A stretch of DNA of 64,000 nucleotides from Podarcis pityusensis (taxonomy: Eukaryota), in assembly GCA_964106645.2 (NCBI GenBank), contig OZ067038.1; one strand, given 5' to 3'. How positions within the stretch are numbered: the stretch's first letter is position 1; each line of letters opens with the position of its first letter. The position numbers were made by a program. This document shows, piece by piece, positions 1 through 11,869 of this stretch.

Positions 1-3000
1 GGGGCTCTTCATATGGTAATGTGCATTACTTTTTTCAGAATTTGGAGCCAGCTCTGCTGTGTTTAGCGTTCTCCTGCTCATTCTTCTTGACCTTGACCTC
101 TGCCCCAAAGTCCTTCCCAACAGCTGCATTGCTGGCATTGGAGAAGGCACCAGCTACCCTCGCTGGTATACATACTGCTTTGGCTTGTGCAGGAGATGAG
201 TCAGCTGGTGGAGTAGCTTCGCTGACACTAGCCACTGGCCAACTGATGCCCATGGTTTTGACAGACTTTGATGGATGTTTCCCTTTTGTTGGTTCCTGTA
301 TTGAGAAAGAGTTCAAATGAATTAGACATAGCAATTCAACCAAAAAAAGAAAAAGGCCTGGTTGAAACAGACTGGATAAGCTAATGCTGTAGTAGAAGGC
401 AAAAGTGAACAAAAAATAATCCCCAACAACATTGCCATGGTATTAAAAAGGTAAAGGTAAAGGTACCCCTGCCCGTACAGGCCAGTCATGTCCGACTCTA
501 GGGTTGTGCGCCCATCTCACTTAAGAGGCCGGGGGCCAGCGCTGTCCGGAGACACTTCCGGGTCACGTGGCCAGTGTGATGAAGCTGCTCTGGCGAGCCA
601 GCACCAGCACAGTACACGGAAACGCCGTTTACCTTCCCGCTATAAAGCGGTACCTATTTATCTACTTGCACTTAGGGGTGCTTTCGAACTGCTAGGTGGG
701 CAGGAGCTGGGACCGAAAGACGGGAGCTCACCCCGCCGCAGGGATTCGAACCGCCGACCATATGATCGGCAAGTCCTAGGCGCTGAGGTTTTACCCACAG
801 CGCCACCCACGTCCCCGCCATGGTATTACTGGAACTAATTAAGCATACTTCAAACATTAGAGGCTGGATCCAGGTTATGCCTTAGTCCCACACAATTAAT
901 GAGGCAACTTACTCATGACTATCTTAAATTTCATCAATTTAACTGGGTGAAAAGTTAACTGCTCAGTTGCAATCCTAGATACACTTATCTCAAAGTCCCA
1001 CTCAAGTCAGTGGGTTTTACTTATCTGTAGACATTGTAGATATATATAGGATTGTGGCATTATGTTTGATCCAACCTACTCTCTACGTTATTTACTCATT
1101 GTCAGGCAAACCCAGATTTATTTCAAATGAAGAAAAAAGGCATTTCTGAGACCAGAATACAGATGAGGGCTTACGTATTGGAATAGCCTTCCACTACAAA
1201 ACTAATTCACTGCACAATAAAGGTAACATTGTCAGAGACAGTTGTTCTCTTAGCCTCCTCCATGGTGTGCTGGTTTTACAGTGAAGTGTCTGACTTCAAA
1301 CACAGAATTCCTCACCTGTGCTCTGAAATAGTATGGTCTGAAGGTGAAGACACATCCCTTTTCCTCAACACCAGCTGTCAGGCATGGGAAGGGAATGAAT
1401 TCTGGACTCTCGGAACAGAGACACGCAATTCAGTGCTGCCTACACTGATTCGACAGCATCTCTCTGTGGTTCCAGGCAGGAGTCTTTAGCTAGCACTACC
1501 TCGAGATGCCAGACATTGCACCGGGGACCTTCTACATGCTATGCAAATATTCTGCCCCTGCATCACCTTGCTTCCCCATTATTATTAGTGGGATACGGAA
1601 GGAAAACTGGCTTTGGAAGTAAAGCTTCGCAGCTTTTTCAGACAGAGGCCTAATCTCAAGCATGCCAGCTCAAGTGCAGATTATTGTGAGCTATCAGTCG
1701 TATATATCAAACTTCCTAAAACATTTCCGATGCTGTTGGGCTACAGGGTACACTAGAAAGGACTATAAAAATCTATGCACAATGACAGCTACAGAAAATA
1801 CACCAAAGACAAAAGAAAAAGAAGAAAATTGCACAGATGAATATGGTTCCTAAGGCATTTTGAGAACCAAAGGGGGGGGGATGCTTCTTAATAAAAACTG
1901 CTTGGAACATTCCCCCACCCCACTGCAGCACACCTAAGCATATTCCCCCCACCCCCACTTTGACGTAGCGGGAACCATATCCATCTCTCTGCAGCTGTCC
2001 CTTTCTTTGTTTTAGGATTATGGAAATCCTCTGCTGAGCCCACAAGCCGGTGGCAGAACAGGAAAAGTGTTGGGAGACCTTGACCTTGATCAAAAGCTGC
2101 AATGCTAAATGCACTTACACAAAGAGGGGTACAACCAATAGGATACAATGACACTTAACCTCTGACTAAATATGGATAGGACTGTTGGAAATGTTTGATA
2201 ACAAAGTGTATAAGAAAGAAGGGAAACTCTGCAATGTGTCTTCCTCTGGGAGAGTTATCAGCTGAAATGTGGAATACAAATTTTCAACTATATATATATA
2301 GTTGAAAAATAAATAACTCAAAAACTACTGCTACTTAAAGTGTCCCTGAATTTGGTGCATTTGCCTGACCACCTTATTCCTGCTGTTCACTGACCCTTCT
2401 GTGTCTTGTCCCTCTGTTGAAGTGTGAGCTAATTTTGGCAGGGTGCCAATATATTGACAACTGTACAACACTTAACATACATTTAAGCACTTTAATAAAT
2501 AGTTTTCCCCACTGAATATTGCTCCCAGTACAGCAATCCCTTCCCTGTTCCTGTCTTCCATTTCTACATACAGTACTATATTCCATGTCAGGCTATCATC
2601 TGGACACCGCTTCTATTGCCAACAAATGGTCTGTCCTAGCAGGTATCTGGATAAAGAAGTTCTTTTGTGGCTCCTTCTTCACTATATGACCCTGAGCAGC
2701 TGAATCAGAGACTCATAAAATGTGTTGGCACTTCTTCAGCTTTCCAGTTCCTGCTATTACTGAGCAAAAAGCTGATGAACCACAGTTCTTCTCTTCCATT
2801 CCCTTCACACATACACCCCCAAGGCCCACTAGCAATTCCCAAACTCTCGTCCTCCCTTGCTGCATTTTCCTTCCTTCAACCCAAGTTTGCAAGTTTAAGT
2901 AAATCCTCTCCCTATTCTGAATCCTGCTGCTTTTGGAAATGTGCCTTTTTCCTTCCCATATTCCCACTTTCAATTCACGCTCTTGCACCTAGGTTCAGTG

Positions 3001-9000: not shown

Positions 9001-11869
9001 GGGACTGTTATTGTGAATTTTTTATTAGCATGCATCTATAATTATGCTCTGCATTGTTTTTTATTATTATGCTCCGTGAAATATGTTCTTGATGTTGTAC
9101 ACCACCCTGGGATCTTTGGATAAAGGGTGGTATATAAACTGAATAAATGATGATAATAATAATAATCTTCGCTGTAGGAGTGTGACCTTAAGTTTCTGGT
9201 ATCTTCTTACTCCAAGCACCTCACATGTCCTCCACCACACAGCATATATTGTATAATTATATGGCTCCCCCCAGTGGTTCATGCTGTTGATGCACTACAG
9301 TGCTGGGAGAGGGAATCAAACACTTCTCCAAACTTTGAGGCTACTTGTTGCTGGGAACAGAGCAAGGGCAACAACATGAATTGGTGTGAGATAATCTTCA
9401 AGTGTACCAACATAGTGTCAGCAGCACTTTTTTTATTATGACTGCTTGCAGTCTTGTCTGCCTTGGTAAAAGAAACAGTTTTTACCCCATGAAATAAGGC
9501 AGCATGGCTTGGATCATGAGCAAGAACATCAACACACACGAAAAGAAGAGTAGCAATTACTGACAAAAACACATGACCAGCATGTCAAAGTTTAGAGCCC
9601 TGCTGGATCATATCAAAGGGCTGTTTAGACCAGTAGTGGCACACCTTTTTTCAGACCAGGCTCCCTATTTCCTTCTGAGCGCCACATGTCAGTGGTGGGT
9701 GGGGCAGCAGCAAAAGAAGGCAGAGCAATGAATGCAAATTTAACCTTTCTATACACACACATACTCATACACCTCTCTTTATCTTCTATCCAGACAAGCA
9801 AGCCACATCATTAGAATTCCAACTAGGCAACAATATTTAGGGTGTGAAGGGTATCACCTGGGAAGAGTTCCAAGTGCCAGAGAGAGAGGTTTGGAGAACT
9901 GTGTTTGGTCACCAGGCCTGAGGTTCTCCATCCCTGACTGAGACCAACATCTTGTTTCCCAGTTATCAACGAGATGCCTCTGGGCAAACCGCCCCCCCCC
10001 CCAGTAAATGGCAATTCAGAGACAGTTGGAGCTGGCCTATGACCATCATGATTAGTTACAACTGATACTTTTAAAAGCAAAGTGGGAAATAAGATTATCT
10101 AAATCCTCATGTTAAAACTCAACTGTTAGCTGACTGTGCCTCTTCAGACTGTGGGTGGGTGATCAAATGTAGAAATGCTTTCTGATATTTTAGGTATACA
10201 CTTGTCTGTGCAGAAAAAATATCAGTGGGAGGGAATGTGGACATTTACCCCTCACTTGTAGTCTTTAAGAATTTGGTGGAGCACATGGTTTCTATACAAC
10301 TGGGCATCATAGGAGCCAACTCCTAGGGGCTGTGGGGGCTTTGGCCCCGACAATAAAATACTTAAGGGGGCCAGGCCCCCACAATGTTGATGGGCATTTC
10401 TATTCAAATGGTGTGTGTGCACTGTGTCATGTGATTGATTATGCGGGGCGGGGTTTACCTGGGCCCCCACAATATTTGATTTAAATTGGCACCCCTGCTG
10501 GGCATTCAAAAGCATCACTGCCTCTGACAGCAGTGCAGACCCATGAATCCTCTTTTATAGGCACCTAAGCTGGTGGCCACCACTGGGGGAGCGATCACAG
10601 ATGGAGGCTAATATTCTGCCTTAAACCATGGTAGAGCATTGGCTACTTGGTGGCCCTGCCTGACAGCACTCTCCTCCCTTCTCTGGCGCTAGGATACCTT
10701 GAAGGAGAACACGGAGGGGATCACGCCCGCCTTCAGCCTTTTCTGTCCTCCATACACCTCGAACTCATCCTGGAAGAAATGATCTGAGCAGATGCAGGCG
10801 CCTGAGCCTGGGATCCACAGCTTCCTGGAGCCTGGCTCAATGCGATTCACAGCCAGCATCCACTTCTTCCTCAGTTCATGGGCTTTGGGGAAGCTGGAGG
10901 AGGAAGAAGAGATGGGAAACTATAAATCCCATTGACTTTCCCCACATGGGCTGATGGTGCAGGTGACGACACCGACTGACACAAAGCCCCGCCCACAACC
11001 CCACACCTGGCCCCGCCCCTTGTTAACCAAAGCCCCGCCCCCTCCGCTAATAGGCTTAGAACCAGCCACACTCTCCATGAGGAGGCCCCATTACGGTATT
11101 CAGATGCAGACCTGTGGAATGAGAGGCCCTTGGCCCGGTTCTCCCGCGTGTCCCGGTTGGGACAGTTAACGGCCGAGCAGGCTTTAGGCATCGTCTCCGA
11201 CTCCACGGCGAAAAGCCCCAATCCCGGCTCCCGCCAAGCGCGGTTACTTTGCCTCGAGCGTCATGGCGGCAACGTCCGCGGCGCACTCTGAACTGACCCC
11301 GGAGGCGACCCGTCGGAGGGAAACACCCCGCGCGCGGATTGGTCCCCGCGGCGACCTGTTGCCGGCCGCGGTGGGTGCTGGGAAAAAGAAAACATGGCGG
11401 CCGGGCCCAGCAAGTCGGAGATTCAGACCCTTTTCAAGCGGCTTAGGTCTGCGCCGCCCAACAAGGTACCGAGCGCGGGGAGTTGAGGCAGGAGGCTCTG
11501 GAGTGTCTCTTTGGCCGCTGTTCCCGAGGGCAGACGCCCGCCGGCCCAGCGTCTCCCCTCCCCACCGTCCCCTTCCGGTTCGGTTCTGACACCGCCGCAG
11601 TGCCCCGTCCACCTGCGGCAGGGCTGGGGCCGTGAGGTTTGAGACCTTGAAGGAGGACGGCACCTGCGTCCCCTCAAAGCACAGCGGCCCGTTTCATCCC
11701 CGCAGTCCCCTCGTTTCAAGCTACAGGGTGGGGAAAGACTCGTCATAGTTAGAGTCACTGGCGCCAGACCAGACATACTGGCTCCCTATAAGGAAGCTGG
11801 CCTGCTGTCCTTCCTTTCCCGGTGGCTCCCTGTTGGTCTTCCTCCTAGCTTCTCTTCTGTTTCTTGTAG

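Follow-up and report, generated by a model that had tools for sequence, protein, structure and literature searches.

The stretch of DNA analysed here, called the window, comprises 64,000 nucleotides of the lizard Podarcis pityusensis (GenBank assembly GCA_964106645.2, contig OZ067038.1) and contains no N. Near its left end, the minus strand carries the beginning of a gene with a THAP domain that stands head-to-head with the plus-strand gene ARFGAP2. Most probably, the minus-strand exons open the coding sequence of a P-element-transposase-derived gene of about 908 amino acids, of which they are coding exons 1 to 3 (residues 1-132). This gene would belong to a lineage that is the sister of canonical THAP9 and would not be the orthologue of human THAP9. 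The two lineages are referred to below as lineage A, to which the gene of the window is assigned, and lineage B, the canonical THAP9.

A probable P-element-transposase-derived gene at the left edge of the window

Coding exon 1 (11191-11112) starts with an ATG at 11191 and encodes residues 1-26, MPKACSAVNCPNRDTRENRAKGLSFH, plus 2 nt, followed by a GT donor at 11111-11110. The first two zinc-binding cysteines (CSAVNC; CxxxxC) sit in this exon. Intron 1 (11111-10894) is 218 nt long and its GT...AG borders can be read directly. Coding exon 2 (10893-10698, 196 nt), which is preceded by an AG acceptor (10895-10894) and followed by a GT donor (10697-10696), encodes residues 27-92 and holds the remainder of the domain, namely the C..H pair (CSDH; CxxH), FP, KW and the VIPSVF end. 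As read from the sequence, the two exons add up to 276 nt, or 92 codons, of an intact THAP domain, which bears out the original prediction. This also holds for the distance of 202 bp that had been given between the THAP ATG and the ARFGAP2 ATG on the opposite strand, as positions 11192-11393 lie between the two start codons.

The C2CH signature, the P/W residues and an AVPTIF-like end are all present in exons 1 and 2, and the score against the family profile lies above the cut-off. Exon 2 alone matched the Pfam THAP profile (PF05485) with E = 4.4e-10 and 40.6 bits (cut-off 23.9), covering positions 22-87 of the 87 in the profile. With 26 amino acids, exon 1 by itself was too short for a Pfam match. 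In the PDB, exon 2 matched the solved THAP domains of THAP2 (2d8r, E = 8e-6), THAP1 and THAP11.

Intron 2 (10697-296, AG acceptor at 297-296) spans 10,402 nt and is rich in interspersed repeats. By eye, the segments at 440-830 and 8450-8650 resemble interspersed repeats of the short interspersed nuclear element (SINE) type, and the region around 7250-7290 is an (ATT)n/(AAT)n microsatellite. Coding exon 3 (295-176) was located by tblastn of lacertid proteins. It has 120 nt, or 40 codons, encodes the linker residues 93-132 and ends at a GT donor (GTATGT) at 175-174.

The exons of the window were searched one by one, and the annotated protein of Podarcis raffonei was used for the full length. Of 29 candidates in the search with exon 2, 14 were matches. 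PF12017 and related P-element-transposase domains occur in every one of the 14, 10 of them are named THAP9 by NCBI, and THAP7 is absent among them. The top match, at 100% identity, is the 908-residue "DNA transposase THAP9 isoform X1" of P. raffonei (P0004). With tblastn, exon 1 (11191-11114 aligned) and exon 2 (10892-10698 aligned) are each 100% identical to this protein, over residues 1-26 and 28-92, respectively, and residues of about 93-133 align at 295-173. No part of the protein maps between exons 2 and 3. Residues 134-908 have no significant match anywhere in the window, and the gene therefore runs off its left edge. The three exons are closest to Podarcis proteins, above all to that of P. 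lilfordi.

Pfam domains of the P. raffonei protein are THAP (5-89), Tnp_P_element (188-262), RNaseH_N (269-404), GBD (433-550) and THAP9_C (724-854), and the protein matches the structure of the Drosophila P transposase (6p5a) with E = 3e-14. The THAP9-type architecture is thus present on an annotated protein that is identical to exons 1-2 of the window, and the transposase exons lie outside the window. By homology to this Podarcis protein, the gene would encode an N-terminal C2CH THAP DNA-binding domain, then an EHQY motif of the HCF-1 type followed by the P-transposase helix-turn-helix (HTH) domain, a split RNase H-like catalytic domain with a GTP-binding insertion and, finally, a THAP9-type C-terminal domain.

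The label "THAP7-like" of the original prediction is wrong, because the matching full protein carries transposase domains and matches 6p5a. The prediction had also set a C-terminal exon at 35-295. Its part from 295 to 176 is a real exon, but an internal one (exon 3), and 175-35 together with the stop belongs to intron 3. This intron starts at 175 and continues to position 1; the frame that stays open in it down to the stop at 35 is a noncoding read-through. After residue 132, the proteins of seven lacertid models and of other reptiles continue with ELIQAEHQYS, unlike the read-through of the window, and an 86-residue frame containing the read-through gave only a chance-level match in Pfam (E = 0.22). 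The D/E-H-x-Y motif for HCF-1, said to be missing, is found as EH[QR]Y at about residue 139 in 15 of 15 lineage A proteins (EHQY at 139 in Podarcis). It seemed to be missing because the model was truncated at exon 3 and the motif lies beyond the edge of the window.

Relationship to canonical THAP9

Among the matches, lineage A members come from lizards, snakes, turtles and crocodilians and from no mammal or bird, and lineage B members from mammals, birds, turtles, crocodilians, one gecko and one cordylid. Identity amounts to 58-81% within lineage A and to 30-36% between A and B. A full-length word-index search with the lizard protein gave 19 matches, all of them from non-avian reptiles and at 63-81% identity; this search reached reptiles only, and birds and mammals surfaced with a profile made of the gecko and tinamou lineage B proteins. 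The profile matched 166 proteins. Of the 120 that were listed, birds account for about 103, mammals for 7, turtles for 5, crocodilians for 1 and squamates for 2, with 2 others, and none of the 120 is a lineage A protein. An exhaustive HMMER search of 1.84 billion representatives yielded 5410 matches, in which the best proteins outside lineage A were THAP9 of a gecko (Eublepharis; 36%, 451 bits) and of a tinamou (35%, 364 bits), the rest scoring at most 250 bits.

The same separation was observed in pairwise comparisons. Lineage A proteins of lizard, snake, turtle and alligator share 58-73% of their residues, and the lizard protein is 63-65% identical to those of alligator and turtle vs 34% to gecko THAP9. 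In turn, the gecko lineage B protein has 33-35% identity to lineage A vs 48% to bird lineage B. Within the 92 residues of the THAP domain, the Podarcis lineage A protein has 83 in common with Chelonia and 73 with Alligator, compared with 35-48 for lineage B proteins. Reading frames of about 900 codons have been kept in lineage A across lizards, snakes, turtles and crocodilians.

Cluster look-ups found A and B together in six species, namely the crocodile Crocodylus porosus, the turtle Chelydra serpentina and the sea turtles Chelonia mydas, Lepidochelys olivacea, L. kempii and Eretmochelys imbricata. Each of these four sea turtles has its A and B genes on contigs that differ in length (134,428,053 vs 142,324,156 bp in Chelonia). 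In squamates, word-index searches found B in a gecko and a cordylid only, and A in lacertids, an amphisbaenian, anguimorphs, iguanians and snakes only, which looks like reciprocal retention. The case for paralogy rests on turtles and crocodilians, because squamates alone would leave a fast-evolving orthologue possible. The suggestion of a separate THAP paralogue made in the original prediction is largely supported, in that the gene is distinct from THAP9, was not found in mammals and coexists with THAP9 in turtles and a crocodile; the paralogue is not of the THAP7 type.

Database names within lineage A are inconsistent. Lizard and alligator members bear the name "DNA transposase THAP9". The member in Chelonia mydas is listed as "uncharacterized protein LOC102930032", and the lineage B protein of that species is the one named "DNA transposase THAP9"; the Platysternon member goes by "circadian locomoter output cycles protein kaput".

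A tree was built with IQ-TREE under LG+C20+F+G4 from 897 alignment columns of 43 named proteins, consisting of 16 of lineage A, 23 of lineage B and the outgroups Bombina, Pleurodeles, Patella and Ixodes. Lineage A forms a clade with 100/100 support. Lineage B, mammals included, forms another with 100/100, within which mammals are sister to sauropsids, and A and B together are separated from the outgroups with 100/99. Branching inside lineage A, with its lizards, snakes, turtles and crocodilians, is largely that of the species. A check for one-to-one orthology with a named THAP gene, which had been proposed along with the original prediction, places the gene in the sister clade A and at a locus other than that of THAP9. 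It does not fall, as a single copy per genome, inside the clade of mammal and bird THAP9 that makes up the canonical orthogroup. A duplication restricted to sauropsids was also considered; constraining lineage A with sauropsid B costs 30.3 log-likelihood units (lnL) and was rejected by the approximately unbiased (AU) test (p = 7e-5).

Catalytic residues also differ between the lineages. In human THAP9, mutation of D304, D374 or E613 cripples excision/integration (PMC8230255). In the alignment, their Podarcis equivalents are D321, D391 and E629. At the position of human D374, aspartate is present in 16/16 lineage A proteins and 7/7 mammalian B proteins vs 0/17 sauropsid B proteins, where it is replaced by alanine in 10 and by glycine in 6 birds, with a gap in 1. 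These 17 proteins come from 7 turtles, 2 crocodilians, 2 squamates and 6 birds. The aspartate of D304 is found in 14/16 lineage A, 7/7 mammalian B and 17/17 sauropsid B proteins, and the glutamate of E613 in 14/16, 7/7 and 16/17, respectively, the one replacement in sauropsid B being a glutamine in Columba. Equivalents of human D414 and D519 are also kept in the lizard protein, and the D(2)H signature is kept in all 40 proteins aligned.

By this comparison, the P. raffonei protein retains the set of acidic residues of THAP9 genes (D304, D374, E613), and the pattern suggests that canonical THAP9 could be catalytically dead in sauropsids. The lineage A product may still cut DNA, because the acidic residues that are important in human THAP9 are kept. 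It would bind DNA sequence-specifically through its THAP domain and might recruit HCF-1 through EHQY. A [DE]HxY motif is present in 4/4 outgroup transposase-like proteins as well, and for this reason the motif is not a marker of a common domesticated ancestor.

ARFGAP2, the shared spacer and the neighbourhood

ARFGAP2 extends over 11394-25517 on the plus strand. Its exon 1 lies at 11394-11465 and its exon 2 at 11870-11988; further exon frames were observed near 15420, 15790, 16050, 21000, 22120, 22540, 23380, 23598, 24800, 25030 and 25400, and the last small exon is unplaced. Exon 2 matched Pfam ArfGap with E = 3e-19. In the PDB, the exon at 15782-15916 scored 61 bits with 2p57 (ZNF289 = ARFGAP2), 55 bits with the ARFGAP2 chain 5nzs_P and 49 bits with ARFGAP3, and the sole match of the exon at 23598-23729 was the ARFGAP2 chain 5nzs_P, residues 357-401, with E = 2e-14. 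The gene was identified as ARFGAP2 because of the Pfam ArfGap match, the higher score for ARFGAP2 than for ARFGAP3 and the exon that matches ARFGAP2 only.

The spacer between the divergent start codons (11192-11393, 202 nt) is a candidate bidirectional promoter. Its CpG observed/expected ratio is 1.21 (11200-11399), it is devoid of a TATA box and it contains CCAAT at 11218 on the plus strand and at 11338 on the minus strand. It lies within a CpG island (10800-12000) that is the sole one in the window; with windows of 500 nt, GC > 0.55 and CpG observed/expected > 0.6, only starts at 10801-11501 pass. The two ATGs share this island and are much closer than the 1 kb between starts below which a CpG-island promoter is counted as bidirectional. 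It is plausible from these features that the ARFGAP2 promoter is used bidirectionally by the THAP9-like gene, which would then be transcribed divergently from a shared promoter of the housekeeping type.

Three GC-box-like CCCGCCC motifs, spaced by about 22 nt, are found just within intron 1 of the THAP gene at 10988, 11011 and 11033 (10988-11041). A tandem-repeat scan of the promoter region, this stretch included, called none. The plus strand has two copies of the sequence ATGGCGGC, one at 11263 (11263-11296) and one at the ARFGAP2 start at 11394. The copy at 11263 opens a frame of 11 codons, which would be an upstream open reading frame if the ARFGAP2 transcript begins that far upstream.

The human THAP9 neighbourhood is COPS4-LIN54-THAP9-SEC31A. 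In agreement with this, one study puts chicken THAP9 on chromosome 4, in an interval shared with COPS4, LIN54 and SEC31A (PMC10035218), and another lists pig THAP9 beside COPS4, SEC31A and SCD5 (PMC11366516). Neither LIN54 nor SEC31A was recognised anywhere in the window; the canonical neighbourhood is not the one seen here, where the neighbour is ARFGAP2. At the human locus, the gene upstream of ARFGAP2 is PACSIN3, and the left edge of the window is too near to show whether it follows here. CSTPP1/C11orf49 lies tail-to-tail with ARFGAP2 in human.

On the minus strand of the window, downstream of ARFGAP2 and likewise tail-to-tail with it, frames at 37172-37384, 33918-34142, 32691-32960 and 29480-29689 resemble exons of CSTPP1/C11orf49, an identity that no tool confirmed for these frames between 29480 and 37384. 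Pfam and the PDB gave nothing for them, and the best ESM Atlas value, 0.81, was below the useful range. The last of these exon-like frames ends with ...ESDGSTEETDSSEN and then a stop. At 38809-38881, also on the minus strand, an Rfam tRNA match was obtained (42 bits), and ARAGORN called no tRNA, including at this position. The match is probably a tRNA-derived SINE within an intron.

Origin of the gene and comparison with known systems

A further-reaching reading, which we put slightly below an even chance, is that non-avian reptiles hold, besides THAP9, another ancient gene that descends from a P-element transposase. It would have split from THAP9 before the divergence of mammals and sauropsids and have been lost in mammals and birds. 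In sauropsids it would be the copy that keeps the full catalytic acidic set, since canonical THAP9 has lost the second aspartate in every sauropsid examined. A and B would have been kept reciprocally in squamates, and in the lizard the gene would be wired to the housekeeping promoter of ARFGAP2.

The main competitor, which we regard as somewhat unlikely, is an independent capture of a related P-like transposon at the ARFGAP2 promoter region in an early amniote or sauropsid ancestor, the gene having never been in mammals or having been lost there. Such an origin would fit the different contigs of A and B, their unrelated neighbourhoods (ARFGAP2 vs COPS4/LIN54/SEC31A), the position of A as sister to the whole of B rather than nested inside it, and the [DE]HxY motif shared by the outgroups. 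Drosophila P elements prefer to insert in promoters, which also agrees with it. It is opposed by the HMMER search, in which lineage B is by far the nearest relative of A among the 1.84 billion representatives (451 and 364 bits vs at most 250), and by the grouping of A with B against amphibian, tick and limpet sequences with 100/99 support. Far less probable is that the gene of the window is the one-to-one orthologue of human THAP9, relocated beside ARFGAP2 by a chromosomal rearrangement in lizards. Its name in NCBI (10 of 14 matches), a domain architecture identical to that of THAP9 and the lack of a squamate with A plus B among the matches would speak for it. However, both lineages occur in five turtle species and one crocodile, NCBI itself reserves the name THAP9 for the lineage B protein of Chelonia mydas, the lizard protein is 63-65% identical to its alligator and turtle counterparts vs 34% to gecko THAP9, and the two clades each have 100/100 support.

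Two further explanations carry very little weight. It is scarcely credible that the three exons make up a small protein of the THAP7 type that stops at 35 and is devoid of a transposase part. The frame does stay open from 295 down to 35, small THAP genes exist and a short isoform retaining the intron is conceivable; yet the lacertid and other reptile proteins continue past residue 132, the GTATGT donor stands exactly at the end of this residue, the read-through segment has no convincing family match and THAP7 is not among the matches of exon 2. The chance that the gene is a P-like transposon copy that is still or was recently mobile, instead of a host gene, is equally slight. Its catalytic acidic residues are retained and the family has active elements in zebrafish (PMC7776569). 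Against mobility, two spliceosomal introns, one of 10.4 kb, interrupt the first 132 codons, and the relatives form a single clade with a largely species-like branching order over lizards, snakes, turtles and crocodilians. No direct or inverted repeats of at least 40 nt were found in 1-12000; terminal repeats of 13 nt were not searched, and the 3' end of the gene is outside the window.

Several points weigh against the reading of a sister gene of THAP9. The transposase part lies outside the window, and its link to exons 1-3 is made through predicted models from other lacertid assemblies. The linkage of lineage A to ARFGAP2 was seen in this window alone and could be specific to lacertids. No squamate with both A and B was among the matches, lizards with A showing A only. 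In the tree, lineage A sits on a long stem (0.97 substitutions per site) and the outgroups have long branches too, so that an attraction of A towards the root by long branches is possible; the named outgroups were four only (two amphibians, a tick and a limpet), and the hypothesis submitted to the AU test was framed once the tree had been seen. As to catalysis, the position of E613 is glutamine in both crocodilian lineage A proteins and that of D304 is asparagine in two squamate ones. In addition, the residue of the lizard protein aligned to D230 of the Drosophila transposase is Gly299; for D230, Table 1 of PMC8230255 gives no counterpart in human THAP9 either.

The gene as such is already known, since databases contain models of it named THAP9. 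Hammer et al. (2005) reportedly dealt with the P homologues of chicken and human. A paper on THAP9 evolution worked with orthologues from NCBI, among them 6 lizards, 7 turtles and 4 alligators, and removed divergent sequences (PMC10824691). In a 2026 preprint, reptile THAP9 C-terminal domains are reported to be of low conservation and to form five clusters, and the words "paralog" and "duplicat" are absent from it. No statement of two reptile THAP9 lineages was found in the portions of the literature available, and the supplements of PMC10824691 and of the 2026 preprint may show the split. Full-text searches of the literature found no paper joining THAP9 with ARFGAP2 and none on a bidirectional ARFGAP2 promoter. 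Reptile database names and the published sets of "THAP9 orthologues" probably mix two genes. Such mixing would explain the low conservation of the C-terminal domain in the preprint, and it could distort evolutionary analyses.

A sister gene that is intact across lizards, snakes, turtles and crocodilians provides a natural comparison for THAP9. To our knowledge, THAP9 is among the few vertebrate genes known to encode a cut-and-paste transposase that is still active, and its cellular role is unknown. Sauropsid B has lost the catalytic aspartate that A keeps, and catalysis-dependent and catalysis-independent roles may therefore be split between the two copies. In addition, the head-to-head layout with ARFGAP2 suggests a route by which a transposase gene might gain constitutive expression.

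Among known systems, the lizard gene shares its design with human and mammalian THAP9. Both proteins have about 900 amino acids and the same order of THAP domain, [DE]HxY motif, P-transposase HTH, RNase H-like domain with GTP-binding insertion and THAP9 C-terminal domain; they differ in being only 30-36% identical, in forming separate clades and in lying at different loci. With the canonical THAP9 of sauropsids, lineage A shares its architecture and some of its hosts, but the aspartate of human D374 / Drosophila D303 is missing from 17 of 17 of these proteins and kept in 16 of 16 of lineage A. THAP7 resembles the lizard protein by an N-terminal THAP domain beginning MP..CSA and by a subsequent motif of the HCF-1 type. 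It differs in being a small THAP protein of about 300 amino acids without a transposase part. Finally, the P-element transposase of Drosophila (6p5a) and the zebrafish transposon Pdre2/THAP9 are homologous to the lizard protein over the HTH, the RNase H domain and the GTP-binding insertion, whereas the lizard sequence looks like a host gene: it has introns, its relatives make up one clade, and the part searched shows no sign of mobility.

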